The notes below the pieces were generated by a model. The model was not told the origin of the DNA, did not search any database, and was given only the letters and a program-made list of their open reading frames with translations. A program made the translations under genes and the position numbers. DNA of 64,000 nucleotides. Origin: Octopus vulgaris (lineage: Eukaryota). Below are positions 1,598 to 62,019 of the stretch, piece after piece. Where the stretch lies: NCBI GenBank assembly GCA_951406725.2, contig OX597833.1, forward strand, positions 14,198,001 to 14,262,000, read 5' to 3'. Each line of letters opens with the position of its first letter. Within the stretch, counting starts at the first letter, position 1.

Positions 1598-1598
1598 T

Positions 1599-1672
<74 letters not shown>

Positions 1673-1717
1673 AATTATTCAGTTTATCATTTAAATATAT
1701 ATGACATGTCTAGATAT

Positions 1718-1792
<75 letters not shown>
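1598..1792. repeat. (ATC)n followed by (TA)n(TG)n microsatellites
   Basis: Directly visible; the source of the poly-M ORF. Confidence 0.95.
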
Positions 1793-1793
<1 letters not shown>

Positions 1794-1796
1794 ATT

Positions 1797-2003
1797 TGTT
1801 ATTCGTGCCTGTGTTTATCCATCCATCATCGCCTGACAACCGATGTTGATGTTTACGTTCCCATCAGTTAGCGGTTCGGCAAAAAACGTCCGATAGAATA
1901 AGTACAAGGCTTATAAAGAATAAGTCCTGGGAGTCGATTTGTTAGACTAAAGGAAGTGCTCCAGCATGGCCGCAGTCAACTAACTGAAGCAAGTAAAAGA
2001 ATA
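1797..2003 (+). mobile_element. SINE family A, diverged 3' half
   Basis: GACAACCGATG...GCGGTTCGGCAAAA...CCGATAGAATAAGTAC...GTGCTCCAGCATGGCCGCAGTC...AAGTAAAAGA matches the 3' half of other family A copies. Confidence 0.85.
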
Positions 2004-2008
2004 ACACA

Positions 2009-2062
<54 letters not shown>

Positions 2063-2222
2063 GTATGTATATATGTATATATATACATATAGATATATAC
2101 ACACATACATAAATATACATACATATACACACACACGAAGAAACTGACAGAATAAGTACCAGGCTTATCAAAAAAAACTCACTAGGCAGTGTCTCATATT
2201 TTTGTTTGCCCACTCAGTTGTA

Positions 2223-3542
2223 TCTATCAATTTTTCTTTGTATATATATATATAACACTCCTAAAATCATTTCTTTTATGATCCAAAACTAGGTCAAAAG
2301 TACTGAATGGATCTTTATGAAATTTGGAAATTATATTCTATGCATAAGGGCCATAACCCCCATGACTATTCATATATTTTTCCTTTTGATGAAATTTTAA
2401 CCATAGATATTAGACACAAATGAAGTAATTTTTTATAAAATTTCATCTTCTTACAAGTTAGAAAGACCCTTCCATGGGGATTTAAAACCCACAATTTTGT
2501 CATTTTATCTAAGCAAAAACGAATACAGTGGTGCTCTTGGAAGCTGTAGGGTTACCCGAGCATAAAAGATGAGCATTATTTGTAATTCAATAGTACAACA
2601 GTGTAACAGTTTGCTTTCACATACACTTACATTGTGATTTCTGTAATGTGATGCATAAATTGTCAAGTAAACGAGAGGCATCTTTGCCTCCACAGATTCA
2701 GTTGCAAAGTGTTGAGTGACGTTATTTGATTGCAGACCTCCTTTCAGTCTTTTTATTATCACTGGGTCACACATAGTCCCCACATGGTAACATTGATTTC
2801 AAGGCCTTCCCAGATGAGTGACTGGTTATTCCAAGACATTTATAGATTGCAAATTTATTCTGTCCAGTTACGTATCAGTATAGTGGTCATTTGCAAACTC
2901 CAGAGATGACACTTTCATTTCTCCTTAGCCTTCACGTCACACAGTTGTTAATGTTTATTTCAGTTGGGTCACGCCCTTCCAATTGCTATAGATTCGTAAT
3001 GCATCTTACGACTGTGCCTGTCACCTGGATGGTGAGGAATTCTACATTGGGAGTGGTAACGACTAGGGTAGGATAGCTGACTGCTTATTGTGATCATTCG
3101 TCTTTTGGTTTCCTGTAGCTTTGCTCTCTTTTACAATCCCAGTGAACATATATTTCCTATTTCAAAGAAGTTCAAACAATAGACATAAGACCCAAGTTAA
3201 AAAAATTCTCAACAATTCAACTTCTCTAGTTGACATTAAGACACCCACCCCCGACAGGGGCCTTAACTCTCACATTTTAGAGCTCCATGACCTTCATTTT
3301 TCAGGAGCAAAATTCTTTTAACAGGTTCTATAAGACTGGAATTTTGGAATATGCGCATAAAAATCAGTAGTATAGGATACACCTGACACGATTGCAATTT
3401 TATTTAGGGTGTGTAAAGAGGGAAATAACCCTCATCTGCAATTTTGATGAAATTCGAAACAAAGGTTCATTACAGAAAATATAACAGAAAAGTCAAATTC
3501 TTCAATTGCATGTTACACGAGCAACGCCGGGTATCTCTGCTA

Positions 3543-3543
<1 letters not shown>
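2223..3543 (+). mobile_element. Non-autonomous Helitron-like element (5' boundary uncertain)
   Basis: The 3' end CACGAGCAACGCCGGGTATCTCTGCTAG|T has the same hairpin+CTAG terminus as other Helitrons here. A TC-TATA-rich start candidate lies near 2223-2255. Confidence 0.55.
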
Positions 3544-3599
<56 letters not shown>

Positions 3600-3625
3600 C
3601 ATACATACATACATACATACATACA

Positions 3626-3660
<35 letters not shown>

Positions 3661-4084
3661 TTACTGAATATTTAGGGTAAACTATCCAGCTGTAGATTCT
3701 TGAAAATATTTAAGCGATAAGCTGTTACGTTTAACAAATAATTAATTGAGGTAGAAATAATAAAAGTGTTGAGAACAAGATCAATGAAACAACTTCGTAT
3801 CTAGTATTTATAGAAGTTTAAACAGTTTTCAAAGTGTTAACCAGTTTTAAATATACGTAAAAAGAATCATACCTTGAAAAAATTGTAAAAAATAAACGCT
3901 GAAAAGTTCTAAATAGTACGTATTCAATCAATATTAAATATAACAAGTGAATCGATGGATAAAGGTTTTTGAATTATAAAAAATTTAATATGGAATCGAA
4001 TTATAAGTTATATGTAGGAAAGGATGGACGATATGCTAGAAAAAGATATTTTTCAAGTACAGGAGAATAATTGGAACGGGCAGA

Positions 4085-4137
4085 GTCTATCTGTCTGCCT
4101 GTCTATCTGTCTGCCTGTCTATCTGTCTGCCTGTCTA

Positions 4138-4220
<83 letters not shown>

Positions 4221-4246
4221 GTCTGTCTGTCTGTCTATCTATCTGT
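4085..4246. repeat. (TCTG)n/(TCTA)n microsatellite
   Basis: Directly visible. Confidence 0.95.
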
Positions 4247-4377
4247 ATACACCCGTGACTAAAGAAGCCAAATTGTTATTACATATATGTGTGTGAGTTC
4301 GTGCCTCTATGTGAGTGTTTGTATGCGTGTCTGTGCGTGTGAATGTGTGTATATATAAATATATATATATAAATTAG

Positions 4378-4620
4378 GTTCCTTCTCGAGCCATGCCACG
4401 CTCATAAGGGCCGGTTTCCCGGTTTCAGTGGAGTAGAAATTCCCCACCTGGACGGGACGCCAGTCCGTGGCAGTATTGCTCATTTTTGTCAGCGGAGTGG
4501 ACTGGAGCAGGGTGAAAATGAAGTGTTTTGCTCAAGAACACAACGCATCGCCCGGTCCAGGAATCGAAACCACAACTTTACGATCATGAGTTCAACACCC
4601 TAACCACTAAGCCACGCGTC

Positions 4621-4625
<5 letters not shown>
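4378..4625 (-). mobile_element. SINE family D (tRNA head, CORE-like middle)
   Basis: The reverse complement reads GCGTGGCTTAGTGGTTAGGG (A box)...GGTTTCGATTCC (B box)...TGTGTTCTTGAGCAAAACACTTCAT...GAAACCGGGAAACCGG. Confidence 0.88.
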
Positions 4626-4673
<48 letters not shown>

Positions 4674-4686
4674 TTCTTATATATAT

Positions 4687-5119
4687 ACTCTTTTACTCTT
4701 TTACTTGTTTCAGTCATTTGAGTAAATCGACCCCAGGGCTTATTCTTTGTAAGCCTAGTACTTATTCTATCAATATCTTTTGCTGAACTGCTAAGTTACG
4801 GGACGTAAACACACCACAAGCAATGGTGGGGGGACAAACACAGACACACAAACATATACATACATACATACATAGATATATACATACATACATATATATA
4901 TATACATATATACATATATATATATACATACATACATACATATATATATATACATATATACGACGGGCTTCTTCCAGTTTCCGTCTACCAAATCCACTCA
5001 CAAGGCTTTGGTCGGCCCGAAGGTATAGTAGAAGACACTTGCCCAAGGTGCCACGCAGTGGGACTGAACCCGGAACCATGTGGTTGGTTAGCAAGCTACT
5101 TACCACACAGTCACTCCTG

Positions 5120-5120
<1 letters not shown>
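4687..5120 (-). mobile_element. SINE family A with internal microsatellite
   Basis: Matches the family consensus GCAGGAGTGGCTGTGTGGTAAG...GGGTTCAGTCCC...(TA)n(TG)n...GAAACAAGTAAAAGAGTAAAAGAG, with internal deletions. Confidence 0.92.
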
Positions 5121-5159
<39 letters not shown>

Positions 5160-5546
5160 TACCTGTATGTTTCTAATATGCTTAAACTAAAGAAGAAGAA
5201 GAGAGAAGAACATAGAAGCCAAACAATCGAGGATGAAACCTTAAAATTCAAAATATAAGCGAGTAAATTTAATAAAGAATTAGTAAATTTTTCCTGTGAA
5301 GAAATGAGTGGGAGGTGGCTAAATTCGTTTGTTTGCGCAGGAAATGATTGCAAAAAGCATATTTTTAGAAAAATGCTAAACTTATTAGGATTAGTAAAAA
5401 TTTAAAAATAAGAAAAATATTAAAATTATTATAAGTTGATAAAGCAATAACGAGAGAAGAAAAGACAGAATAGTACGAGAAATATAATTCGAAAGTAAAA
5501 CATAATTTGATTGTAATGAAATAGATTAAATTATGATATCAAATAT

Positions 5547-5932
5547 GGAAGCACTCCGTCGGTTACGACGACGAGGGTTCCGGTTGATCCGAATCAACGG
5601 AACAGCCTGCTCGTGAAATTAACGTGTAAGTGGCTGAGCACTCCACAGACACGTGTACCCTTAACGTAGTTCTCGGGGATATTCAGCGTGACACAGAGAG
5701 TGACAAGGCCGGCCCTTTGAAATACAAGGTACAACAGAAACAGGAAGTAAGAGTGAGAGAAAGTTGTGGTGAAAGAGTACAGCAGGGATCACCACCATCC
5801 CCTGCCGGAGCCTCGTGGAGCTTTTAGGTGTTTTCGCTCAATAAACACTCACAACGCCCGGTCTGGGAATCGAAACCGCGATCCTATGACCGCGTGTCCG
5901 CTGCCCTAACCACTGGGCCATTGCGCCTCCAC
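5547..5932 (-). mobile_element. SINE family C (tRNA-Arg-like head), full length
   Basis: A box TGGCCCAGTGG, B box GGTTTCGATTCC, 3' end CGTAACCGACGGAGTGCTTCC; TSD ATATCAAATAT on both sides. Confidence 0.93.
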
Positions 5933-6068
5933 TAATATCAAATATACGTACTGTAACGCTGGGGATTCATATAATTTAACGGATGAAGGCGGATTTTAAA
6001 ATATAGTAAGTGCGAATTTGGGGGATTTAGTAAGAATAAGTTTCAACTTTAAATTATATATTCAGAAA

Positions 6069-6436
6069 TCTATTATATAAAATCCGTTCTGTCTATCTGT
6101 CTATGTGTCTTCTAGGATCTCGGGCATCCTCCATCTGATTGCGCTCAAATTTGATATGTAGATGCCGACGGTATCAGGGCGTGTATAAAGTCTTGAAAAA
6201 AATTTCAAAAATCGATTCCAGGTGAGAATGCGATCGATAAAGCCGCGGAAACATGCATTTGTACGCGCAAGTACATCAGTCGAAATCAGTCTTTTGCTGG
6301 TGTCTCAAATTTAGGTTAAATCAGTGTTTCTCAAGGGGGGGGGGGCTATGGGGCGGTCGGACAAGTTGTTTTGAGAAAATTTGGTTTCAATGTTTGACAA
6401 CTCAGCACCGTCCATTAGACGGGGGCGTTTTGCTCG
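6069..6436 (+). mobile_element. Non-autonomous Helitron-like element, CTCG-ended family
   Basis: A|TCTATTATATAAAA start, CCGTC/GACGG hairpin, end TGCTCG|T; second copy at 48337-48726. Confidence 0.7.
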
Positions 6437-6551
6437 TGTTTAATATTAGAGTAAATGAAGGAAAGGTAATTATTGGATATAATTGGGAGCTTATTTGGAT
6501 TGAGAAATGTTTCTCCAAGAATTCAATGAAAAGTCAAGAAAAGAAGTCATA

Positions 6552-6714
6552 GGCGTAGGAGTGGCTGTGTGGTAAGTAGCTTGCTTACCAACCACATGGT
6601 TCCGGGTTCAGTCCCACTGGGTGGCACCTTGGGCAAAGTGTCTTCTGCTATAGCCCCGGGCCGACCAAAGCCTTGTGAGTGGATTTGGCAGACGGAAATT
6701 GAAAGAAGCCCGTC

Positions 6715-6757
<43 letters not shown>

Positions 6758-6931
6758 CGTGTTTGTGTGTCTGTGTTTGTCCCCCCCCCCCAACATCGCT
6801 TGACAGCCGATGCTGGTGTGTTTACGTCCCCGTAACTTAGCGGTTCGACAAAAGTGACCGATAGAATAAGTACTAGGCTTACAAAGAATAAGTCCTGGGG
6901 TCGATTTGCCTGGCTAAAGGCGGTGCTCCAG
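6552..6931 (+). mobile_element. SINE family A, 3'-truncated
   Basis: Family A head and internal (TA)n(TG)n; stops after GGCGGTGCTCCAG. Confidence 0.92.
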
Positions 6932-6962
6932 TGCTCAGCCTCGAGTAGAAAAGAATATATAC

Positions 6963-7061
6963 CAGTCGGGTGCTCGTGTAGTCTTTCCTCGCACCCTCGA
7001 TGTTCCTTTTGGTCAAATGTAGGGCGGCCGATGGGGCGTCTGCTCTCGACTACATAGAAAC
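6963..7061 (-). other. Candidate 99-bp internal coding exon (unverified)
   Basis: Unique, GC-elevated segment bounded by TTGCTTTAG| and |GTATAT on the minus strand. One open frame (phase 1): FYVVESRRPIGRPTFDQKEHRGCEERLHEHPT. No recognisable homology. Confidence 0.25.
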
Positions 7062-7962
7062 CTAAAGCAATTATCAAAGTATGGTAAGCGTTACTCCACT
7101 CTTGTTTAAGAGTGACCACTGCATCTTTAAGAATACGACAGATGCGTGATTCAGTAGTGGTCAGTAGGCTTTGTACATTTTTGCTACCAATAAAATGTTT
7201 AATCTTATTTAATGTTAATAGTCGAAAAAGTTTAAATATTTGCACAATCGCTTACTGCTAAGCTAATCTTAAATCATTTAAAAATTTTATTCTATCTATA
7301 TAATTTTAAAATTTTTTTTTGGTGAATATCCAATAATTTTCTATCGTATAAATACATAATTTTCTCATAATTATAAATTTCCCATTTTATCTCCCAAACT
7401 AACTGCTATCTAAAATAGCATTTTCTCTAGCACCAAATTATAGCTTTATTTTTGAATTTTAACCATATTTAACTTCTTTACTCAGTAAACAGTCCATATA
7501 AGCTCCGCCCCTAGAATCTTATTTAAACCTCGGGATATACACACGTACATGCATACACATATGTATATACATACATATACACATGCACACATATATGCAT
7601 ACACACACACGCACACAGACACACGCACATATATGTATATATACATAAACACACATACACGCATACACACAAACACACACAGACACACATACAGGCACAC
7701 ATACGCACACACACACTCACCCCAACACACATATCCTCAGAAAATAAAGACAAAATTGCATAGCTTACGTCAAGTAATTTATATCCCTCTGAGCTGTATT
7801 AAATAAGCAGAACAAATATTTTAAACATTTAGTTCGCATATTTTCCAATTGTTTTTCAGTCTGAGATATTGAAGAAGAAAAAAGTAGTTTACTTTTTAAA
7901 TCTTTCAAAACCCCGTTATAATGTTTCGCTCTGTATAAGTCTTTTTTAACATATCACTATAT

Positions 7963-8928
7963 ATTTCTTTATTGCCCACAAGGGGCTAAACACAGAGGAG
8001 ACAAACAAGGACAGATAAGGGGATTGAGTTGATTGCATCGACCCCAGTGCAAAACTGGTACTTTATTTATCGACCCCGAAATGAGGAAAGGCAAAGTCGA
8101 CTTCGGTGGAATTTGAACTCAGAACGTAGCGGCAGACGAAATACCTATTTCTTTACTACTCACAAGGAGCTAAACATAGAGGGGACAAACAAGGACAGAC
8201 AAGGGGATTAAGTCTATTATATCAACCCCAGTGCGTAACTGGTACTTATTCAATCGACCCCAAAAGAATGAAAGGCAAAGCCGATCTCGGTGGAATTTGA
8301 ACTCAGAATATAACGGCATTCGAAATACCTATTTCTTTACTACCCACAAGGGGCTAAGCACAGAGAAGACAAACAAGGACAGACAAACGGAATAAGTCGA
8401 TTACATCGACCCCAGTGCGTAACTTATTTAATCGACCCTGAAGGGATGAAAGGCAAAGTCGACCTTTGCGGAATTTGAATTCAGAACGTAACGACAGACG
8501 AAATAACTATTTCTTTACTACCCACAAGGGGCTAAACACAGAGAGGACAAACAAGGACAGGCAAACGGATTAAGTCGATTACATCGACCACAGTGCGTAA
8601 CTGGTACTTTTTTAATCGACCCCGAAAGGATGAAAGGCAAAGTCGACCTCGGCGGAATTTGAACTCAGAACGTAACGGCAGACGAAATACCTATTTCTAT
8701 TTCTTTACTACCAACAAGGGGCTAAACACAGAGAGGTCAAACAAGGACAGACAAACGGATTAAGTAGATTACATCGACCGCAGTGCGTAACTGGTACTTA
8801 TTTAATCGACCCCGAAAGGATGATAGGCAAAGTCCACCTCGGCGGAATTTGAACTCAGAACGTAGCGGCAAACGAAATACTGCTAAGCATTTCACCAGGC
8901 ACGCTAACGTCTCTGCCAGCTCGCCGCC
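7963..8928 (-). mobile_element. SINE family B multimer: one head plus about five 180-190 bp body units
   Basis: Head GGCGGCGAGCTGGCAGA at 8928; repeated GAGTTCAAATTCC...GACTTTGCCTTTCATCCTTTCGGGGTCGA...GCCCCTTGTGGG units. A single TSD TTTTAACATATCACTATAT lies at 7944-7962 and 8929-8947. Confidence 0.93.
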
Positions 8929-8949
8929 TTTTAACATATCACTATATTC

Positions 8950-11745
8950 ACAGTGATTAATGATTAACTGTTAATGAGCGGCTTTTATAACTTTGTTATT
9001 TCGCCGATGCTCTGTAGCAGTTATGAATTGGAAATTTTGTAAATCCACTTTGACATATATTACCATATGTCCAGTAATGGAAATTTCTTGTACTCTTACA
9101 ATTGATTTACTGTTCGTTTATCGCCATTCTTTTGCGTACCGACAATATTGTTTGTCCTATGTTGTTTCCCAAGCTTCTGCATACTGCCACACAGCCTAGG
9201 TTCTTTGAGCTTCAAATAAAGCCCTAATTTACTTTAAAGCACTGTCTGTCTTCAAACTTGAGGGTTGAGTCTTCATTGAAACATAAAGACATAGCACGTT
9301 TTCGTCTTATGCAGCTTGTAACAGAGGAGTTGGAAACTTGTTTATGAACTTTTCAATACTAAGTACATATTAGGTTGCTTTTGATATCTTATTCATTTTC
9401 TAAAACATACTTCATATAACATGGGTAAAATTTTAAGCCAAATTTAGCAAAATAAAGCGAAATATTTCGGCCTTTCTTGCTTTAAACGTTGACACAAGAC
9501 AACACCTTGCTGTCAGTTTTACGTGTTGAATATCTCCAAGAATTGCTGTTTGAATAAGAATGTTCTTACAATTCAATTTGTGGTTACATTCTGTAGGTTT
9601 TGATACTAGTGAAATTCTTTTTGCTAGGGTCGCATGTTCTTTCATGTGTGTTTAGGAAGGCAAAATGGGGGAAAAATATAGAGCTTTGAATCTGAGAGTT
9701 TATGGTAAATGTATGTTTGTACCTTCTTGTCAGTTTACATAATTAAAGCACCTAAAACGGTATGCCCTTCTTGTTGAATTCCATTGTGGATTTAACATTA
9801 GATTTATTACAAGCATCCAGCCACAAAATGAAACAGGCAGCCAGATATTAATTTTTTTTAAAGTATGATGTAAAATGTATTTCGAAATATTTGTAAATAT
9901 ACATCATGAATTTCTTCTCATGGTAACAATCACTAAGTTGGCGTATGTGAGGACTACTTTAGTTCCCCTGTCAGTCTCTGATATTTGTCGGTTCGTTGTG
10001 TCATCAAATATGAAGAAATGTTGACGTTACACGATTCTAGGACAAGCAACAATAAAGGTTTTAAGTGTGTTCTGATAACCCAAATTGATATGTATTAAGC
10101 CAATACTTAGTCACATTGATTCCATATTCATGAGGGATAATAATGCGCAAGATTACAGTATCAAGGTAAACAATAATTTCATTGTAGTTTACTATATTTA
10201 GGAAGAGTTAAGTACATGTAGATCATTTATAATATTTTGTATGTTTCTAATAGAATCTTAGTAAGATTTCCAAATATTACTTAACATGTGTATTTTGAAT
10301 GCAGGATCTAATTCCAAATCCCCAGTGATAGTATTTCAATAGGAGGCGCAATGGCCCAGTGGTTAGGGCAGCGGACTCGCGGTCATAGGATCGCGGTTTC
10401 GATTCCCAGACCGAGCGTTGTGAGTGTTTATTGAGCGAAAACACCTAAAGCTCCACGAGGCTCCGGCAGGGGATGGTGGTGATCCCTGCTGTACTCTTTC
10501 ACCACAACTTTCTCTCACTCTTACTTCCTGTTTCTGTTGTACCTGTATTTCAAAGGGCAGGCCTTGTCACTCTCTGTGTCACGCTGAATATCCCCGAGAA
10601 CTACGTTAAGGGTACACGTGTCTGTGTGAGGGCGCGTGGCTTAGTGGTTAGGGCACTCGGCTCATGATCGTAAGGTTGTGAGTTCGATTCCCGGCGACGC
10701 GTTGTGTCCTTGAGCAAGACACTTTATTTCACGTTGCTCCAGTCCACTCAGCTGGCAAAAATGAGTTGTACTTGTATTTCAAAGGGTCAGCCTTGTCACT
10801 CACTGTGTCACGCTGAATATCCCCGAGAACTACGTTAAGGGTGCACGTGTCTGTGGAATGCTCAGCCATTTGCACGTTAATTTCACGAGCAAGCTGTTCC
10901 GTTGATCGTATCAGCTGGGACCCTCGTCGTCGTAACCGACGGAGTGTTTCCTCCCTAGTATTTCAATACAGTTTGTTTCTGAGCTTTTATAGGCATCAAC
11001 TTTATTTTGTGCATTTAGGGTAGGCCACAGAAATTGTTAATTTAGCAGTTTTGAGTTGATTACATAATCAAATTCTTTGGTGGCCAAATATTTGCAGTTC
11101 ATATTCAATAATCTCATTAGATTTTCACTATTTTTAGTTGTTTAGAGTCGTTTTGTTTTGTTGCTAGAAATTGTTATTTCTTAATATTTTAAGCATAACT
11201 TCTTTATAACAATCTGTATCCATGAAAACAGCTGCACTACCTTTACTGGCTTCCCTAATTTTCATTTTAATGTTTTTTCTATCGAGATCATTTAGATGTT
11301 TCTATTCTTGTCTAAAGAAATTCGATTTCATGTTCCTATTTTCAGTCATTTCAATGAGAAAATTCATAATGTGTTCACAGTTAGAGCCAATTGCTTAATT
11401 CCTTCTTTTCTTTGCACAAAAATAACTTTTAATTATAGCTAGTGACTCATTATGATTATCACCACCCTTTCTAAAATTAGGCTCAACTAGCATAGGATTT
11501 CAACAATTTTTTCGTCTAATGAAAGTTAGAATTGTAGGAAGTAGCTGAAAGCTTCAGATCTCCCCCAAAGGCCACTAAATATGTTCACTTGATTATCGGC
11601 TAATCTTCTGATTGATATTAATCTTTTATCTGATTTTGCGCATATCTGAGCTCGATCTAGAAAGCGATTCTTATTGCTCTGTGAACTTGGTCTTAAAACA
11701 CAAATCTTATTGCATTTATTATCTTTGGTCTTAATTCTCATGTTT
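8950..11745 (-). mobile_element. Decayed Penelope-like retroelement (RT + GIY-YIG endonuclease pseudo-ORF)
   Basis: Manual minus-strand translation gives PLE motifs in the correct order: IREASKGSAAVFMD (~IKxADKGxAVVIMD), NFCGLP*MHK (~FYGLPKIHK), LDTVILRIIIPHEYG (~DVxSLYTNIPH), RQISETDRGTKVVLTYANL (~QxxGxAMGxxxAPxYANL), YLAACFILW (~YLDD), IYHKLSDSK (~IYxKPTD), NIGQTILSVRKRM (~YIGQT). Many stops and frameshifts. Confidence 0.85.
10342..10956 (+). mobile_element. Composite SINE: family C fused to a D-head/C-tail chimera, inserted in the Penelope-like element
   Basis: The C copy runs 10342-10626, then a new head GGCGCGTGGCTTAGTGG with the CORE-like middle and the C tail follows. One TSD, TAGTATTTCAATA, flanks the whole unit. 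Confidence 0.88.
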
Positions 11746-11789: not shown

Positions 11790-12403
11790 CTTTTCTGCTC
11801 TAGGTACAAAGCCCGAAAGTTTTTGGGGAGGGAGCCAATCGATTAGATCGACCCCAGAATGCAACTGGTGCTTAATTGATCGACTCCGAAAGGATGAAAG
11901 CCAAAGTCAACTTAGGTGGAATTTGAACTCTGAATGTAAAGACAAATGAAATACTGCTAAGCATTTCGCCCGGCGAGCTAACGTTTCTTATTTCTTTATT
12001 GCCCACAAGGGGCTAAATATAGAGGGGACAAACAGGGACAGAAAAACGGATTAAGTCGATTACAACGATCCCAGTGCGTAACTGGTACTTAATTTATCGA
12101 CCCCGAAATGAGGAAAGGCAAAATCAACCTCGGCGGAATTTGAACTCGGAACGTAACGGCAGACAAAATACCTATTTCTTTACTACCCACAAGGGGCTAA
12201 ACACAGAGGGGACAAACAAGGACAGACAAACGGATTAAGTCGATTATATCGACTCCAGTGTTTCACTGGTACTTAATTTATCGACCCCGAAATGAGGAAA
12301 GGCAAAGTCGACCTCGGCGGAATTTGAACTCAGAGCGTAACGGCAGACGAAATATCACTAAGCATTTCTCCCGGCGAGCTAACGATTCTTCCAGCTCGCC
12401 GCC
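11790..12403 (-). mobile_element. SINE family B multimer plus variant-tail B copy
   Basis: Family B units; TSD ATTCTATTTCAAATAAT on both flanks. Confidence 0.9.
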
Positions 12404-25183: not shown

Positions 25184-25720
25184 GGGAAGGATGGCTTCCC
25201 ATTGCAAATACTGATAGGTCACAGAAAGTGTGTCAATAGCCAGCTGGAGGAGGTGTCCTCCTGGGGCTACAAGCTACAGTAGCATCCATCCTTAGGAGTT
25301 AGCCATATTTAAATGGCAAATATATCTGATCACGTGTCAATACCCAGATACTCGAATCCATGGGTATCATAGGTTGAAGACGGGAAGGATGGCTTCCCTT
25401 TTCAAATACTGATAGGGCACAGAAAATGTGTCAATAGCCAGCTGGAGGAGGTGTCCTCCTGGGGCTACAAGCTACAGTAGCATCCATCCTTAGGAGTTAG
25501 CCATATTTAAATGGCAAATATATCTGATCACGTGCCAATACCCAGATACTCGAATCCATGGGTATCATAGGTTGAAGACGGGAAGGATGGCTTCCCTTTT
25601 CAAATACTGATAGGGCACAGAAAATGTGTCAATAGCCAGCTGGAGGAGGTGTCCTCCTGGGGCTACAAGCTACAGTAGCATCCATCCTTAGGGGTTAGCC
25701 ATATTCAAATGGCAAATATA
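25184..25720. repeat. 198-bp tandem repeat, about 2.7 copies, hairpin-rich
   Basis: Units start GGGAAGGATGGCTTCCC at 25184, 25382 and 25580 and are nearly identical. Confidence 0.95.
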
Positions 25721-29794: not shown

Positions 29795-30190
29795 TCTTTA
29801 TATATAAAAGTTAAGTTGTGTGTCTGTCTCCTACGATTCAGATTCCTAACTACTCCCACATTTTGCGGTGCAGTTTAACCAAAACCGGGTATCTTATAGT
29901 CGTGATTCATATCGAGCCCTTCTGGGTATTAGCGCGCGTCTACGATGAGTCTACGATTTAAAAATAATTACCATAATTTTTTCCCATTTTAATGCATTTT
30001 TTCGCTATTATATAAGGGAAGTAACTCTCTAAAAATGTCTACGATGAGTCAACGATTTAAAAAAAATTACCATCATATTTTTTCCATTTTTAATTTCTTT
30101 TTTTTTCTTTTTTTTTTGGCTATAACTCTCTAAAAATGCTTTATAGTTATTTCCCTTACAAACCCGAGCAACGCCGGGTGATACTGCTAG
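29795..30190 (+). mobile_element. Non-autonomous Helitron
   Basis: A|TCTTTATATATAAAA...CCCGAGCAACGCCGGGTGATACTGCTAG|T. Confidence 0.9.
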
Positions 30191-30489
30191 TATAAAATAA
30201 AACCAAAACAATACAAATAAATTAAATACGTATAATCTGTGTTGCTGCTTTCTTGTTTTGTGGTGTCCCTTTTTCTTCGGCTTAAAATTCAAACTTTTGA
30301 TCGTTGATCGTGCCATGTTTGATCTAAACGAAGATTACCTCCTTACTATTATTGAACACCGAGGAACGCCACATGTTTTAAAACAAATCATATTACATGT
30401 ATTAATGTCTAATTGTCAGTAGAACAACGTCTTTTGGATGTTAGGAGTTCAGCCAGAAAAAAATATTAGAAATTCATATCTTATTTGTC

Positions 30490-31090
30490 AGCGGATCCGT
30501 TTCAAGAAGACGATCAAGAAACTTCCTGAGAGAAATGAAAAGTGGAACGGCTATTGGGAGGTAACTGCAGATTTACCTGGGTGCCAGGTTTTCTTTCCCA
30601 TCCCAGTTACGAAAAAACCAGATATTTTGATGTGGTGTGAAAGAAAGTTGTAAATATAGTCGAGCTAACGGTTCCTCATGAAGATAATATGGACGCCGCT
30701 CGGGTTCGAAAATTGAACCGTTATGTAAACCTCCTCGAGGAATGTGAAGACGCAGGCTGGAAAGCGGAACATTTTCCAATCGAAGTCGGATGTAGAGGGT
30801 TTGTTGGACACAGCGTGAGACGACTGTTGTTATCGCTAGGCCTAACTCATCGTAAAGTCAATACCACCATGACTGATATCCAATCTACAGTGGAGAAGGC
30901 TAGCCACTGGATTTGGTTAAAAGAGACGATGAGCGATGGCTAAAAGGATATTGAGCTTAACTTCATAACCAGCTGATCTAGCAAGCGAGGCCTCATATCA
31001 GTGAGGGGGGCCGGTGCGTATTGATGCCGTCGAGAGGTAGGGTCCAAAACGGCGCGCATTCTCTCCTGATGACTCCATACACTTGCTGGT
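30490..31090 (+). mobile_element. HERO-type non-LTR retrotransposon 3' end (RLE domain), copy 1
   Basis: WEVTADL...KKPDILMW...IVELTVPHEDNMDAARVRKLNRY...GWKAEHFPIEVGCRGFVG...EKASHWIWLK is a PD-(D/E)xK restriction-like endonuclease of the HERO/NeSL group; frameshifted. Confidence 0.9.
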
Positions 31091-31477
31091 TTCCGGTATA
31101 CGGAGCTTTTGACTGGTAGCACTTGCATGTGTAAGCTTTTTGCAAGACATCGATAACTCAACGTATTTGCGTTGCGTAGCATTAGATTCGCTCCGCTCAG
31201 TGTAGCTCCCAGGATTTGCCCAGGTTTTCCCCGCTGTTCAGCTTGTTCTTGTATGCATATAGGCTCTGCTAGTGGCTTCAGGGAAAGTCTTTTCAGTTAG
31301 AACTCCAGAGCAGCTGTTCCTGGGATCTAATCTCTGTTGGCGTTTATTGCAGCAAAGTGTTTGTGGATAGTTAGAAGACATTTTTGTGAATGTATGTGAA
31401 TGGGAAGGATAGTTTTCTTAGCGTAATCTTAAATGGTAATATGCTGACGTGTTGCAGATGTATCCGAACGCTTTCAT

Positions 31478-31846
<369 letters not shown>

Positions 31847-31940
31847 GTCTATCCGTCTGTCTGTTTGTCCGTCTGTCTGTCTGTCTGTCTGTATCCATAC
31901 ATATGCACACACGTACATACAGACGCACACACACACCCAA

Positions 31941-31971
<31 letters not shown>

Positions 31972-32791
31972 CGTATATGAGAAAAATTGAAGATTGAAGA
32001 CTGATGTTTTTTACTTGATAGTTGACAATTGTTTCAACATCTCCACGTTGGCTACATACACATTATGTCTATAGTTACGTATGCTAACAATGATTTAACC
32101 ACTTAAATAACAAATATTTGACCTTAATCAGAATGGGCAAATTTAGAACGTAAGAATAAACGCCATAGTTCAGCAACCAGTCTTCATTTTGTTTAAAAAG
32201 GAATTTCATATTTTGAAGGCATGAAGTATAAAATGCTGATACTGTCGGTCTTAAATCGTACGTTTGAGGCATTTTCTTCTTCTTGAGGCTATCTTTTATT
32301 GATTATGTTAAGTGTAGTTGTATAAATCTGTATTATGAGTTGGTAAAGAGTATGTACGTGGAGGCGCGTGGGTTAATGGTTTGGGCGTCAGCACCATGAT
32401 CGTAAGATTGTGGTTTCGATTCCTGGACCGGGCGACGCGTTCTGTTCTTGAGCAAAACACTTCATTTCACGCTGCTCCAGTCCACTCAGCTGGCAAAAAT
32501 GAGTAACGCTGCGATGGCCTGGCGTCTCGTCCAGCTGGGGAACACATATGAAGAAAAACGAAGGAAAAATGAAGAAATATATAAAACACAGATTCCATGA
32601 GACTCTTGAAAACTGTAATTTGTTTTGCTTCCTAAAATGTTTAATTTCGTTTAAATTATTTGCCTCCGGTTATATCATGCTGAGGACTTCTGATAAGGAT
32701 GAAATTGCATTATACATGATTACCTATGACTAGAAATTTTAAGATCTTGCTAATGAAAAAGCAAAACAAAAATTATAAAAAAGCAAGGAAA

Positions 32792-33183
32792 TCTTTATAT
32801 ATAAAAGTTAAGTTGTGTGTCTGTCTCCTACGATTCAGATTCCTAACTACTCCCACATTTTGCGGTGTAGTTTAACCAAAACCGGGTATCTTATAGTCGT
32901 GATTCATATCGAGCCCTTCTGGGTATTAGCGCGCGTCTACGATGAGTCTACGATTTAAAAATAATTACCATAATTTTTTCCCATTTTAATGCATTTTTTC
33001 GCTATTATATAAGGGAAGTAACTCTCTAAAAATGTCTACGATGAGTCAACGATTTAAAAAAAAAATTACCATCATATTTTTTCCATTTTTAATTTCTTTT
33101 TTTTTCTTTTTTTTTTGGCTATAACTCTCTAAAAATGCTTTATTTCCCTTACAAACCCGAGCAACGCCGGGCGATACTGCTAG
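32792..33183 (+). mobile_element. Non-autonomous Helitron (duplicated copy)
   Basis: Same termini as 29795-30190. Confidence 0.9.
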
Positions 33184-33483
33184 TATAAAATAAAACCAAA
33201 ACAATACAAATAAATTAAATACGTATAATCTGTGTTGCTGCTTTCTTGTTTTGTGGTGTCCCTTTTTCTTCGGCTTAAAATTCAAACTTTTGATCGTTGA
33301 TCGTGCCATGTTTGATCTAAACGAAGATTACCTCCCTTACTATTATTGAACACCGAGGAACGCCACATGTTTTAAAACAAATCATATTACATGTATTAAT
33401 GTCTAATTGTCAGTAGAACAACGTCTTTTGGATGTTAGGAGTTCAGCCAGAAAAAAATATTAGAAATTCATATCTTATTTGTC

Positions 33484-34085
33484 AGCGGATCCGTTTCAAG
33501 AAGACGATCAAGAAACTTCCTGAGAGAAATGAAAAGTGGAACGGCTATTGGGAGGTAACTGCAGATTTACCTGGGTGCCAGGTTTTCTTTCCCATCCCAG
33601 TTACGAAAAAACCAGATATTTTGATGTGGTGTGAAAGAAAGTTGTAAATATAGTCGAGCTAACGGTTCCTCATGAAGATAATATGGACGCCGCTCGGGTT
33701 CGAAAATTGAACCGTTATGTAAACCTCCTCGAGGAATGTGAAGACGCAGGCTGGAAAGCGGAACATTTTCCAATCGAAGTCGGATGTAGAGGGTTTGTTG
33801 GACACAGCGTGAGACGACTGTTGTTATCGCTAGGCCTAACTCATCGTAAAGTCAATACCACCATGACTGATATCCAATCTACAGTGGAGAAGGCTAGCCA
33901 CTGGATTTGGTTAAAAAGAGACGATGAGCGATGGCTAAAAGGATATTGAGCTTAACTTCATAACCAGCTGATCTAGCAAGCGAGGCCTCATATCAGTGAG
34001 GGGGGCCGGTGCGTATTGATGCCGTCGAGAGGTAGGGCCCAAAACGGCGCGCATTCTCTCCTGATGACTCCATACACTTGCTGGT
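33484..34085 (+). mobile_element. HERO-type non-LTR retrotransposon 3' end (RLE domain), copy 2
   Basis: ORF 33683-33949 MDAARVRK...IEVGCRGF...ASHWIWLKRDDERWLKGY retains the native C-terminus. Confidence 0.9.
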
Positions 34086-34685
34086 TTCCGGTATACGGAG
34101 CTTTTGACTGGTAGCACTTGCATGTGTAAGCTTTTTGCAAGACATCGATAACTCAACGTATTTGCGTTGCGTAGCATTAGATTCGCTCCGCTCAGTGTAG
34201 CTCCCAGGATTTGCCCAGGTTTTCCCCGCTGTTCAGCTTGTTCTTGTATGCATATAGGCTCTGCTAGTGGCTTCAGGGAAAGTCTTTTCAGTTAGAACTC
34301 CAGAGCAGCTGTTCCTGGGATCTAATCTCTGTTGGCGTTTATTGCAGCAAAGTGTTTGTGGATAGTTAGAAGACATTTTTGTGAATGTATGTGAATGGGA
34401 AGGATAGTTTTCTTAGCGTAATCTTAAATGGTAATATGCTGACGTGTTGCAGATGTATCCGAACGCTTTCATAGAAACGTTAGTGCGCCGGGCGAAATGC
34501 ATAGCGGTATTTCGTCTGCCGTTACGTTCTGAGTTCAAATTCCGCCGAGGTCGAGTTTGCCTTTCAGCCTCTCGGGGTAGAAAAATAAAGTACCGGTTTC
34601 CCACTGGGTCGATGTAATCGACTTAATCCGTTTGTCTGTCCTTGTTTGTCCCCTCTATGTTTAGCCCCTTGTGGGTAGTAAAGAA

Positions 34686-34757
<72 letters not shown>

Positions 34758-34760
34758 GTA

Positions 34761-34841
<81 letters not shown>

Positions 34842-34935
34842 GTCTATCCGTCTGTCTGTTTGTCCGTCTGTCTGTCTGTCTGTATCCATACATATGCACA
34901 CACGTACATACAGACGCACACACACACCCAAACAG

Positions 34936-34968
<33 letters not shown>

Positions 34969-35354
34969 CGTATATGAGAAAAATTGAAGATTGAAGACTG
35001 ATGTTTTTTACTTGATAGTTGACAATTGTTTCAACATCTCCACGTTGGCTACATACACATTATGTCTATAGTTACGTATGCTAACAATGATTTAACCACT
35101 TAAATAACAAATATTTGACCTTAATCAGAATGGGCAAATTTAGAACGTAAGAATAAACGCCATAGTTCAGCAACCAGTCTTCATTTTGTTTAAAAAGGAA
35201 TTTCATATTTTGAAGGCATGAAGTATAAAATGCTGATACTGTCGGTCTTAAATCGTACGTTTGAGGCATTTTCTTCTTCTTGAGGCTATCTTTTATTGAT
35301 TATGTTAAGTGTAGTTGTATAAATCTGTATTATGAGTTGGTAAAGAGTATGTAC

Positions 35355-36132
35355 GTGGAGGCGCGTGGGTTAATGGTTAGGGCGTCAGCACCATGATCGT
35401 AAGATTGTGGTTTCGATTCCTGGACCGGGCGACGCGTTCTGTTCTTGAGCAAAACACTTCATTTCACGCTGCTCCAGTCCACTCAGCTGGCAAAAATGAG
35501 TAACGCTGCGATGGCCTGGCGTCCCGTCCAGCTGGGGAACACATACGCCATAGGAACCGGGAAACCGGGCCCATGAGCCTGGCTAGGCTTTAAAAGGGCG
35601 CATTTATTTATTTGTGGAGGTGCGTGGCTTAGTGGTTTGGGTGTCAACACCATGATCGTAAGATTGTGGTTTCGATTCCTGGACCGGGCGACGCGTTCTG
35701 TTCTTGAGCAAAACACTTCATTTCACGCTGCTCCAGTCCACTCAGCTGGCAAAAATGAGTAACGCTGCGACGGACTGGCGTCCCGTCCAGCTGGGGAACA
35801 CATACGCCATAGAAACCGGGAAACCGGGCCCATGAGCCTGGCTAGGCTTTAAAAGGGCGCATTTATTTATTTGTGGAGGTGCGTGGCTTAGTGGTTAGGT
35901 TGTCAGCACCATGATCGTAAGATTGTGGTTTCGATTCCTGGACCGGGCGACGCGTTCTGTTCTTGAGCAAAACACTTCATTTCACGCTGCTCCAGTCCAC
36001 TCAGCTGGCAAAAATGAGTAACGCTGCGATGGCCTGGCGTCCCGTCCAGCTGGGGAACACATACGCCATAGGAACCGGGAAACCGGGCCCATGAGCCTGG
36101 CCAAGCTTTAAAAGGGCGCATTTATTATTATT
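35355..36132 (+). mobile_element. SINE family D head-to-tail trimer (period 259 bp)
   Basis: Units start at 35355, 35614 and 35873, each with A/B boxes and a (TTTA) tail. A degenerate TSD TAA(A/G)GAGTAT(G/T)TA flanks the trimer. Confidence 0.94.
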
Positions 36133-36313: not shown

Positions 36314-36740
36314 GGCGGCGAGCTGGCAGAAACGTTAAGACGCCGGGCGAAATGCTTAGCGGTATTTCGTCTGCCGCTACATTCTGAGTTCAAATTCCGC
36401 CGAGGTCGACTTTGCCTTTCACCCTTTCGGGGTCGATTAAATAAGTAACAGTTACGCACTGGGGTCGATGTAATCGACTTAATCCGTTTATCTGTCCTTG
36501 TTTGTCCCCTCCGTGTTTAGCCCCTTGTGGGTAGTAAAGAAAAATTGGTATTTCTTCTGCCGTTACGTTCTGAGTTCAAATTCCGCCGAGGTCGACTTTG
36601 CCTTTTATCCTTTCGGGATCGAATAAATAAGTACCAGTTACGCACTGGGGTCGATATAATCGACTTAATCCGTTTGTCTGTCCTTGTTTGTCCCCTCCCT
36701 CTGTGAGTAGCCCCTTGTGGGCAGTAAGGAAATAAGAAAT
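36314..36740 (+). mobile_element. SINE family B dimer
   Basis: One head and two bodies. Confidence 0.92.
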
Positions 36741-44611: not shown

Positions 44612-45030
44612 GGGCGAGGCGAGCAGGCAGAAACGTTAGCACGCCGAGCGAAATGCTTAGCAGTATTTCGTCTGCCGTTACGTTCTGAGTTCAAATTCCG
44701 CCGAAGTCGATTTTGCCTTTCATCCTATCGGGGTCGATTAAATAAGTACCAGTTACGCACTGGGGTCGATATAATCGACTTAATCCGTTTGTCTGTCCTT
44801 GTTTGTCCCCTTTATGTTTATCCCCTTGTGGGTAGTAAAGAAATAGGTATTTCGTCTGCTGCTACGTTCTGAGTTCAAATTCCGCCGAGGTCGACTTTGC
44901 CTTTCATCCTTTCGGGGTCGATAAATTAAGTACCAGTTACGCACTGGGGTCGATATAATCGACTTAATCCGTTTGTCTATCCTTGTTCGTCCCCTTTATG
45001 TTTAGCCCCTTGTGGGCTTTAAAGAAATAT
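44612..45030 (+). mobile_element. SINE family B dimer
   Basis: One head and two bodies; TSD TAATGCA(A/C)CATTGGG. Confidence 0.92.
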
Positions 45031-45926: not shown

Positions 45927-46812
45927 GGCGGCGAGCTGGCAGAAGGGTTAGCATGCCGGGCGGAATGCTTAGCGGTATTTCGTCTGCCGTTACGTTCTGA
46001 GTTCAAATTCCGCCGAGGTCGAATTTGCCTTTCATCCTTTCGGGGTCGATTAAATAAGTACCAGTTACGCACTGGGGTCGATGTAATCGACTTAATCCGT
46101 TTGTCTGTCCTTGTTTGTCCACTCTGTGAGTAGCCCCTTGTGGGTAGTAAAGAAATAGGTATTTCGTCTGCCGCTACGTTCTGAGTTCAAATTTCGCCGA
46201 GGTCGACTTTGCCTTTCATCCTTTCGGGGACGATTAAATAAGTACCAGTTACGCACTGGGGTCGATATAATCGACTTAATCCGTTTTTCTGTCCTTGTTT
46301 GTCCACTCTATGTTTAGCCCCTCGTGCTTACAGTAGAAAAAAATTTTCTCTGAAAGAAAACCGGTGAGTTGGCAGAGTCATTAGCACACCGGGCAAAATG
46401 CTTAGCGGCATTTCATCCGTCTTCGGATTCTGAGTTCAAATTTCGGCGTCGATAAAATAAGTACCAGTTGAATCCTGCGGGACGATGAAATCGACTTGTC
46501 TCCTCGCCGAAATTATTGGTGGCCTTGTGCCAAAATTTGAAATTAATATATTCTCTGAAAGAGATGTACAGAAAGATCAGGGTAGCGCACAACGCATAGA
46601 AACAAAAACGTAACACTGTGGCTTCAGGCTTTGGTAGAGAGAATTTCATTGGAAGGGGTTTTGTCGATTACATCGGCCATAATGCTCAACTGGTACTTAT
46701 TCTATTGACCCCGAAAGTATGAAAGGCGAAGTCGACTTAGAATATAAAGGCAGCCGAAGTGCTGCGAAGCTTTTTACCCTTCGAGTTAACGATTCTGTCA
46801 TCTCACCGCCTT
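45927..46812. mobile_element. SINE family B cluster: + strand dimer (45927-46325) and two old copies in opposite orientations
   Basis: Family B consensus blocks. Confidence 0.85.
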
Positions 46813-51540: not shown

Positions 51541-51839
51541 GACATCGATAAAAGAATAAAGAGACTTTTCTAATGTGTTTGAATATGTAAATTGTCTCGT
51601 AAAACTGTGATGTAATTTTATAATCTTGCTTTCTTGTAAATAAAATTTTCATACACTCACAAATGGATGCAAAATGAAAGCGAAAAAAATATTTACAAGT
51701 CGAATCTAAAAATGTTTGACAAACGACACACTTAATAATGAAATATGAGTACAATATCGGTCCTCTTATCCGGTTTCTAGAAATCCGGAAGTTCCCGAAA
51801 TACCATGCAATACCTGGCAATACCAGGCAATAATATTGT

Positions 51840-52457
51840 ACCTATTTCTTTACTGCCCACAAGGGGCTAAACATAGAGGGGACAAACAAGGACAGACAAA
51901 CGGATTAAGTCGATTATATAGACCCAAGTGCGTAACTGGTACTTTATTTATCGACCCCGAAAGGATGAAAGGCAAAGTCGACCTCGGCGGAATTTGAACT
52001 CAGAACGTAGCGGTAGACGAAATACCTATTTCTTTACTACCCACAAGGGGCTAAACACAGAGGGGACAAACAAGGAAAGACAAACGGATTAAGTCGATTA
52101 TATAGACCCCAGTGTGTGACTGGTACTTAACTTATCGACCCCGAAAGGATGAAAGGCAAAGTCGACCTCGGCGGAATTTGAACTCAGAACGTAACGGCAG
52201 ACGAAATACCTATTTCTTTACTACCCACAAGGGGCTAAACACAGAGGGGACAAACAAGGACAGACAAACGGATTAAGTCGATTATATAGACCCCAGTGTG
52301 TGACTGGTACTTAATTTATCAACCCCGAAAGGATGAAAGGCAAAGTCGACGTCGGCGGAATTTGAACTCAGAACGTAACGGCAGACGAAATACCTATTTC
52401 TTTACTACTCACAAGGGGCTAAACACAGGGGGGACAAACAAGGACAGACAAACGGAT
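51840..52457 (-). mobile_element. SINE family B body array (about 3.3 units, headless)
   Basis: About 183-bp units joined by GACGAAATACCTATTTC. Confidence 0.92.
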
Positions 52458-60085: not shown

Positions 60086-60770
60086 GTTGAATTTCAAATG
60101 GCAGAATATAAGTAATAACTACAGAGGTTTCTGGAGGAGATTTATAGCACTTAACAAATAATACACACTGCAAGTTATTAGTAACCCTTGACATAAAAGT
60201 TTGTTTATACATACACACATACACACACACACACACACGCACACACACACACATACACATACAAACGCACAAACAAGCACAGACACACAGGTGGACATAA
60301 AACCCATTCAATAAATGCTTTTAAGCCACTCCCTTAGTTGGAAACCACAAAAATTTCTTTTCGATAATAGACAACTACACCTCTTACTCTTCAACACTTC
60401 GAACTCTATACCAAGTGCTACAAGGGAAAAAGACTTCAACGAAAGAATTCCAAACACGTTTTTGACACCCCAACAAAATTACTTTTACTTGAAATTTTTA
60501 TAAATTTGTACTGATATCTGATAAGTTGATGTTCATTACCGAAACCAGTAATATTTTCTTTATATAATTTTACAAATAATTTTTATTAAATTCCTTCTTT
60601 AATTGAAATATCTTAGATTTACTTCTGTGTTATTTCCACCTCCATGTATTATATATAAAAAATTGATTTGCAACATTTTTCCAACCTATATATATATGTG
60701 ATCTCTTGAGCACCACCAGCTCAAATATTTTCTCCTCTGTCTTCCCTCCTTGGGATCTTTCCTTCTCCTT

Positions 60771-60805
60771 GTTTCCGACGAAGAGCTCCGCTCGAAACGT
60801 TAAAC
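60771..60805 (+). ncRNA. Minimal hammerhead-like motif in a Penelope pLTR-like segment
   Basis: GUUU-CCGACGA-A-GAGC(UCC)GCUC-GAAA-CG-UU-AAAC: stems I and II are present with palindromic AACGUU, but the core is variant (U4C, extra A). Confidence 0.45.
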
Positions 60806-60921
60806 CCTCCTTCCCTTCTTTCCTGAGCGTTAATAATACTTTAATTGTTCCACGTCCTGCGTTGCTGTGTTTTTTTTTTTTTTCTTTTTTTTTCTTTTTT
60901 TCTGTGTTTTCTTGTTTGGAT

Positions 60922-60990
<69 letters not shown>

Positions 60991-61140
60991 GGTTTAGGTA
61001 ATTGAGATTCAAGTGAATTCTAAAGAATTCACATGAATATGGTCCTTAACTAGGATGCACCGGAAATCTATATGGTGTTAACCATACGACAAGTGGGGTG
61101 ATTACAAATAGGAAAAAAGCAACAAGAATGGATTAAAATA

Positions 61141-61224
61141 TCGGTACAATTGTTTCGTACGAGGACATCTTTAATAAGCTACAAAAAATGCAGTAAATAC
61201 AGATGGCTCGTACTCGTCAGCCGA
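61141..61224 (-). ncRNA. Type I hammerhead ribozyme (minus-strand copy)
   Basis: UCGG-CUGACGA-GUACGAG-[43 nt]-CUCGUAC-GAAAC-AAUU-GUA-CCGA; predicted cleavage between 61145 and 61144. Confidence 0.85.
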
Positions 61225-61440
61225 AAAAACATCAGAGATTCCCAAACATCAAAAGGGGTAGATACAAATGAGGGTGTGAGATTAACTGCATTGAAGAACG
61301 TTATAGTTCATAGTGAATTGTTAATCAAGTAACTTGATTAACAACTTGATCTCCAGGAATCGAACGTTCTTCAATGCAGTTAATCTCACACCCTCATTTG
61401 TATCTACCCCTTTTGATGTTTGGGAATCTCTGATGTCTTT

Positions 61441-61524
61441 TCGGCTGACGAGTACGAGCCATCTATATTTACTGCATTTTTTGTAGCTTATTAAAGATGT
61501 CCTCGTACGAAACAATTGTACCGA
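61441..61524 (+). ncRNA. Type I hammerhead ribozyme (plus-strand copy)
   Basis: Complete core CUGANGA/GAAA/GUA; stem I UCGG:CCGA; stem II 7 bp extended by CAUCU:AGAUG; short stem III AC:GU with palindromic AAUU loop. Predicted cleavage after A61520. Confidence 0.87.
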
Positions 61525-62019
61525 TATTTTAATCCATTCTTGTTGCTTTTTTCCTATATATATATATATATATATATATATAATGGCTACATCAGCACCA
61601 TTAGCAATAACAAAAACAATCTTTATCACCAACGTGGCTTGGATGTTGTGCTAGAACAGAGAATACTGCATTATTTCCCTAGAGAGGACCCCTCATAAGG
61701 AGTCGCGGTGCACAAAAAAATCGTATTTATGTCGTTGACAGAGGAGAACCGTTTGCTACGGCCGCCGAAAGTTCACAGGATTTCACCCTAGTTTTGAGTT
61801 CCTCAGTGAAAGGTCGTGAGTAACGAGGTAACAGTGGAATCTTCTCGTGAACAATAAATAGAATATCATTCTTCGTTCAGATATTGATGTGGTAAATAGC
61901 TGGAGGACTTATTAAAAAATAATTGATAGCGAGAAAAATACTTTGAAGAGCGAACGGCATCTTTTTCGCGAAATTAAAGAATGCTTTTATCCACTATGAG
62001 TCCATAGGCGAGGTCTGCG

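Follow-up and report, generated by a model that had tools for sequence, protein, structure and literature searches.

Inverted pLTRs and a one-sided tail have been published for Penelope-like elements (PLEs), and the same paper names the origin of the inverted insertions and of the tails as an open question (PMC8557442). The Hydra clade described there (Craig et al. 2021, PMC8557442), with Penelope-13_HM, Penelope-2_NV, Hydra-1_Amil and Hydra-1_Obim among its members, has DKT for DKG, RWK, CxCX5C, CxxC/CxH around E/N, no CCHH, no conserved GxKF/Y and a (TA)n target. The parent of the locus studied here resembles this clade in DKT, CxCX5C, CxxC/CxH, the C-terminal GIY-YIG, the (TA)n target and the 3' hammerhead ribozyme. 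It differs in having RWR instead of RWK, a 43-nt insert in helix II and a tail of ~118 nt where the clade has 30-40. It also measures ~4.9 kb, whereas the clade is generally <3 kb (a tendency and not a strict criterion), the difference being due to a 3'UTR of ~1.3 kb and to in-frame linkers that are long and rich in Asn. According to the supplement of PMC8557442, Penelope-13_HM has, like our locus, a 5'-truncated inverted copy with one hammerhead per strand, and the hammerheads of Penelope-2_NV and Hydra-1_Amil have the layout found here, with a self-complementary stem III.

The PLE hammerheads of PMC4209133 combine a long helix II, a short helix I and a palindromic helix III, as does ours, and in Schistosoma dual hammerheads lie ~100-700 bp apart on opposite strands; our motif differs in its extended loop 2, and our opposite-strand pairs obey a one-tail rule. 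The Penelope elements of Adineta vaga (Arkhipova et al. 2013, PMC3846280) share with our family the head-to-head inverted pLTRs, the junction palindromes, the tail on one inverted pLTR and the Asn-rich in-frame inserts, but they belong to another clade and host, their TSDs are visible (masked by (TA)n here) and they were explained by self-priming. The Poseidon element PAc of Anolis (Frangieh et al. 2024, PMC11167929) has AT-rich targets and a hammerhead in the pLTR, as here, and in vitro two reverse transcription (RT) start sites bound its tail and both target strands are cut and extended. Its hammerhead overlaps the ORF start, whereas our family has its ATG ~175 nt beyond the end of the pLTR, and the PMC11167929 passages on the two start sites do not connect them with the two arms of an inverted insertion. 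Animal non-LTR retrozymes share the type I hammerhead and the PLE pLTR ancestry, but they consist of a non-coding monomer repeated directly in tandem, whereas our locus is a unique inverted stub derived from a coding element (10.64898/2026.07.22.740005).

The locus lies in a window of 64,000 nucleotides, which is the whole stretch of DNA that was analysed, and its features are the following.

60926..60989, no strand: left target microsatellite, (TA)32
60990..61107, minus strand: PLE tail of 118 nt, on this arm only; in the tandem unit it stands between pLTR and ORF
61108..61302, minus strand: left arm, an inverted PLE 3' end (pLTR)
61141..61224, minus strand: type I hammerhead, mirror of 61441-61524; cut predicted between 61145 and 61144 from the hammerhead consensus
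61303..61330, minus strand: more inverted PLE 3'UTR; between it and the left arm, 58 nt of the natural copy L020 are deleted
61318..61344, no strand: true inversion centre with a 12-bp hairpin; its junction 23-mer is unique in the genome
61345..61362, plus strand: 3-nt filler and PLE 3'UTR; second 58-nt deletion, offset by 15 nt from the left one
61363..61557, plus strand: right arm, a direct PLE 3' end (pLTR), short, without tail
61441..61524, plus strand: type I hammerhead; stem III has 2 bp and its 8-mer is self-complementary; cut predicted 3' of 61520
61555..61582, no strand: right target microsatellite, (TA)14

The inverted repeat (61103-61302 and 61363-61562) has arms that are 98% complementary, and its 195-nt core (61108-61302/61363-61557) contains two mismatches (61437/61228 and 61465/61200). 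The initial annotation had described two 195-bp near-identical inverted arms, each bearing a complete, outward-facing type I hammerhead, and this description was accurate. It was right about a co-centred inner hairpin but not about its length of 13 bp, since 61318-61344 forms 12 bp with a 3-nt loop. It overlooked a further 118 nt (60990-61107) of the left arm ahead of its microsatellite: the insertion spans 60990-61554 between (TA)32 and (TA)14, and the element is asymmetric. This additional stretch matches L064 3286-3399, immediately 5' of a long ORF, and is 96-98% identical to natural copies. With L020 as the reference, the two arms begin near the same position, -278 from the pLTR end, and each has lost 58 nt near the centre, the losses being offset by 15 nt; the 3-nt filler lies on the right side of the inversion centre. 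One base is common to both arms and absent from every other fetched locus. The predicted fold of the whole palindromic element has -357.5 kcal/mol (z -47). No long coding frame was found in the arms in any of the six frames, and no host gene is evident among the long frames of the window by a crude filter that is blind to exons. Judged from its sequence, the palindrome is almost certainly an inverted stub of a PLE, with two 5'-truncated 3' ends that meet head to head in (TA)n, which bears out the earlier link to inverted pLTRs.

A descriptor scan of both strands of the 64 kb returned three hits: the two hammerheads of the palindrome at 61439-61526 (plus) and 61139-61226 (minus), and 60769-60807, which belongs to another family. 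The plus-strand motif has the intact core (CTGACGA at 61445-51 and GAAA at 61509-12), the three stems and the NUH triplet of type I. Stem I pairs TCGG (61441-44) with CCGA (61521-24), stem II has 7 bp (61452-58/61502-08) enclosing the 43-nt insert, and stem III has 2 bp closed by the loop AATT, with the predicted cut 3' of A61520. Checked against Rfam, Hammerhead_1 (RF00163) aligned over its full length to 61439-61526 in a 143-nt search, although the score of 16.1 bits (E 0.2) is below the gathering threshold of 34; in an 8-kb search the model was not found at E<=5, and the only matches were of miRNA models to microsatellites and hairpins, all below gathering. In the isolated motif the predicted pairing is ~0.98 for stem II, 0.4 for stem I and 0.06 for stem III, while a co-fold of two copies, held together by an intermolecular stem III of 8 bp, has -52.0 versus 2 x -22.7 kcal/mol, a gain of 6.6 kcal/mol. 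As had been proposed, the motifs are of the PLE kind that needs a partner for stem III. An older subfamily has the loop GATC instead of AATT with the self-complementarity kept, and this single evolutionary event is in line with a dimer function, as read from the sequences.

In the whole element the predicted pairing of all three ribozyme stems falls to 0.0, in agreement with the suggestion that the antisense arm switches the ribozyme off. The same arrangement speaks against a self-cleaving unit: each strand carries one sense ribozyme 3' of its full antisense. As modelled, the hammerhead in this back-to-back stub is most likely inactive, because in a transcript the antisense precedes the ribozyme and a tandem partner is lacking; if the stub is transcribed, a 195-bp dsRNA rod would form. 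Single minimal PLE hammerheads showed no activity and dimers showed weak activity (PMC4209133), or the protein of the element itself is needed, and in vitro cleavage is dispensable for a PLE (PMC11167929). The normal role of the hammerhead is most likely the dimer- or protein-assisted processing of tandem PLE transcripts. RNA editing was also considered. A>G at 61148 and T>C at 61151 (run X15) correspond to the GATC subfamily variant and A>G at 61195 is present in DNA runs as well, and no editing signal was seen among these differences in the run contigs. No RNA run was listed as carrying the sequence, which in contig data speaks neither for nor against expression.

Other repeats were observed in the window. 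The 60769-60807 motif (plus) is part of a copy of a second hammerhead family at 60690-60925, which ends on (TA)n and has a changed core base. A 32-mer of this family has 949 exact matches and its word depth is 30-50 times that of the palindrome arms; all eight copies viewed measure ~200-230 nt, and their 5' ends, ~70 nt ahead of the ribozyme, differ by no more than a few tens of bases. By its sequence this family looks like a SINE-like PLE derivative, far more abundant than the palindrome arms. A third, decayed hammerhead-like motif (60512-60565, altered core, mismatched stem II) was seen by eye and missed by the descriptor scan, and no further copy was found among the fetched loci. A 184-186-bp unit is dispersed in the window on both strands in short tandem arrays of 2-5 copies, and a tandem-repeat pattern at ~29900-32000 recurs at a ~3-kb offset at ~32900-35000, which suggests a local duplication. 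The arrays are as follows.

7962-8880, 11989-12354, 36361-36732, 44663-45029, 45974-46326 and 51839-52457: 184-186-bp arrays
35355-36126: 259-bp array
25184-25720: 198-bp array

The parent of the arms was sought by walking upstream of the 30 best arm matches. In L028 a GIY-YIG frame was found upstream (Pfam PF01541, E 1.7e-5, above cut-off), and two of the 12 larger fetched stretches contain open full-length frames of 1090-1091 codons (L063 1872-5141, minus; L064 3400-6672, plus). The L064 protein has 1072 aa from its ATG, with GIY-YIG at E 9.5e-5, above cut-off, and RVT_1 at E 6e-4, below it. A Pfam search with the full-length L064 protein and a PDB sequence search with the RT region returned no match. 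The element of ~4.9 kb has a single ORF consisting of RT, long Asn-rich linkers and GIY-YIG at the C-terminus, followed by the ~1.3-kb 3'UTR, a hammerhead ~35 nt from the end and the ~118-nt tail. In L064 the unit covers 3194-8007 plus tail, with a pLTR and tail (3194-3399) ahead of the ORF as a partial tandem and the ATG ~175 nt beyond the pLTR end. Inspection by eye of the L064 protein identified ADKTG (DKT), CNCRIKSKC (CxCX5C), CQLC (CxxC), CIH (CxH) and a single Cys directly before YVG, and the RT motifs align by eye with the Hydra alignment in the PMC8557442 supplement. RWR stands in the place of RWK as a conservative variant, and GxKF/Y is absent near the N-terminus. The family prefers (TA)n, which borders nearly all ends among the fetched loci.

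On these sequence features the parent is an EN+ Penelope-like element and appears to be of the Hydra type. The family is recently active and apparently new, being uncatalogued in the available parts of the PLE literature and of the PMC8557442 supplement, where a 14-nt core motif does not occur either. Identity with Hydra-1_Obim was rejected, as the protein start and the hammerhead differ by eye. Several further observations were made on the parent. The two long Asn-rich linkers of L063 and L064 vary in length between copies, a feature also reported for Penelopes of rotifers, and the 3'UTR contains internal tandem duplications of ~130-260 nt that differ by subfamily. At L064 3283-3457 a pyrimidine-rich AG at ~3451, 6 nt 5' of the ATG, and possible GT donors in the tail suggest, from the sequence, a 5'UTR intron as in Penelope. 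L064 also contains (104-8980) a 2.9-kb inverted duplication, 99% identical, that takes in the host flank past the element end and is either a later rearrangement or a 3' transduction.

Exact matches were searched in the 2.8-Gb genome. The hammerhead 23-mer gave 421 (control, 0), and the first 100 of these, counted by hand, include 40 that form 20 head-to-head pairs with spacings of 102-3683 nt. The insertions behind the first 30 matches, also counted by hand, are head to head in 11 of 22 cases and single in 11, five of the singles being tailed and six short. Among distinct head-to-head insertions with both ends classifiable (loci L001-L123), all 38 consist of one end with the ~118-nt tail and one short end, and none has two tails or two short ends. 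Given five tailed to six short singles, the chance of this result under independence is ~0.5^38. The number 38 is obtained from 37 signature rows, plus 2 for loci sharing a length, minus the complex L055/L064; L039 is L072 truncated by the locus edge and the two count as one insertion, while L031, L027 and L067, each with one damaged end, were left out and do not break the rule.

The arms themselves reach unequally far. Of 20 pairs out of 21 (the complex L120 is omitted), 10 have the longer reach in the tailed arm, 7 have it in the short arm and 3 have equal arms, so that 17 of 20 are unequal, by up to 3 kb. L007, L011 and L014 have a tailed arm that contains nothing but tail, and their arms therefore have no common template. 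At 13 variable columns, subfamily discordance is 0.038 within pairs versus 0.295 between them, which indicates by sequence that both arms of a pair derive from the same subfamily; two subfamilies serving as templates for two arms were not seen. This concordance fits RNA pairs from the same source and later conversion alike, and the two cannot be told apart by it. Symmetric pairs are the window copy, L107 and L114 (3 of 20), to which L008 can be added; L076 has a 24-nt fold-back cap, and private bases are common to both arms in 6 of 21 pairs.

That the locus arose by insertion of a Hydra-type PLE into (TA)n, built head to head, is in our opinion very probable as a whole. How the second arm is made is less certain, and for the inverted insertions we favour two-site twin priming with moderate confidence. 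The PLE protein would cut both strands of (TA)n, and reverse transcription would be primed by each freed 3' end, in one case from the end of the pLTR and in the other from a site ~118 nt 3' of it; UA-rich RNA follows both start sites and could pair with the target. The two cDNAs would stop independently and then be joined through microhomology or a short filler (the BLAST end overlaps of 1-19 nt are a rough measure of microhomology only), with the hammerhead travelling as pLTR cargo. The window copy would afterwards have lost its 58 nt per arm near the centre, and long palindromes tend to lose central sequence. In twin priming of the L1 type the two arms have no shared template. One tail per pair, together with a short arm that is the longer one in 7 of 20 pairs, is better explained by two start sites at fixed positions than by simple fold-back. 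The in vitro start sites were determined with Poseidon, not with a Hydra element, and no strand difference in their use was found (PMC11167929). The phrase 'twin priming' was not found in the PLE literature searched.

The main competitor keeps the same PLE origin and replaces the second priming event by fold-back: a cDNA started from the tail would turn at a local hairpin, be copied back by self-priming and have its pLTR end captured by (TA)n, with later central deletions leaving the arms unequal. This is near the self-priming idea in the Discussion of PMC3846280, and we regard it as the less likely of the two. It likewise predicts one tail per pair. The window copy itself is an argument for it and against twin priming, since its arms both start at -278, meet at a 3-nt loop, share a private base and have matching 58-nt losses; this symmetry and the private base are as compatible with fold-back copying as with a common template. 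The symmetric junctions of L107, L114 and L008 and the six pairs with private bases in both arms speak in the same direction, and the symmetric pairs, L008 and the L076 cap show that fold-back does occur. Unequal arms could alternatively result from late central deletions in a once-perfect palindrome. Against fold-back as the general route, the arms are unequal in most pairs, the untailed arm has sequence that is missing from the tailed arm in seven, and three insertions have arms lacking a common template, so that a large one-sided deletion would be needed in each of these cases. In addition, the arms of the window copy differ at one site that is variable within the PLE family.

A more speculative version of head-to-head insertion, which we think rather improbable, sees the stem III palindrome as an RNA dimerisation signal more than a cutting device. 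It would pair two RNAs on an RT-endonuclease dimer (the PLE protein is predicted as a dimer; PMC11167929), each subunit would prime from one cut (TA)n strand, and the geometry would force one start to the pLTR end and its counterpart to the end of the tail. If true, this would account for the head-to-head layout, the doubled 3' end and the one-tail rule (38 of 38), and also for the palindrome kept through the change from AATT to GATC and for the published dispensability of cleavage. As a separate observation, at L017 1892-1985 a 5'-truncated copy of the family and a 3' end of the second hammerhead family, the latter inverted, are fused head to head with no (TA)n in between, the one such fusion in 57 loci examined. 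It is possibly a mixed-template insertion or a nested one; pairing of two RNAs, if it takes place, would make it a mixed-template product.

The initial annotation had proposed a separate non-coding, palindromic, ambisense retrozyme-like family that spreads as a palindrome and uses its dsRNA rod as a switch. Both hammerheads are intact, the family is young, as was also claimed (the best matches of the arms are 97-98% identical), and 40 of the first 100 of the 421 matches are in head-to-head pairs. Youth alone would leave the cores intact, however, and the other data make this idea highly improbable. The junction 23-mer has one exact match in the genome, the junctions of all 20 fetched head-to-head pairs are different, including those of three pairs with near-equal spacing, and the spacings form a continuous range. 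Since each pair has its own junction, the mirror half is made anew at each insertion. As the initial annotation had itself listed against its idea, the fetched pairs turned out to be ordinary pLTRs with variable inversion points, though of an apparently uncatalogued family, and the arms are contiguous with a coding parent. The tandem monomers that define animal retrozymes (10.64898/2026.07.22.740005) are absent: among the first 100 of the 421 matches there are no true tandem hammerhead pairs, no tail-to-tail pairs and one same-strand pair, a local duplication, and full-length tandem pLTRs occur only inside coding elements.

Long perfect inverted repeats are a known class of artefact, and the piece spanning the junction was found in at least one of four runs (X1, a possible source sample, at depth 2.7), but an assembly or fold-back read artefact is hardly credible here, because this 120-nt Logan contig matches 61273-61392 without difference, the arms differ by 2 substitutions, by 2 unlike central deletions and by a one-sided tail, and 38 insertions obey the one-tail rule.

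The palindrome is therefore an ordinary PLE insertion product with a layout that is already published, and not a new self-cleaving RNA family. What the family adds is a PLE of the Hydra type whose full-length frames are open, with Asn-rich linkers, an unusually long tail (~3x the usual length) and a hammerhead that scores below the Rfam threshold. The long tail and the many young copies made a clean genomic count possible, in which all 38 insertions have one tail and the arm lengths are independent. Through this count the two arms are linked with the two RT start sites known in vitro, and the one-tail rule together with the unequal arms makes twin priming and fold-back directly testable against each other. 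Head-to-head insertions of this kind scatter long perfect inverted repeats through the genome, and these are potential sources of dsRNA.
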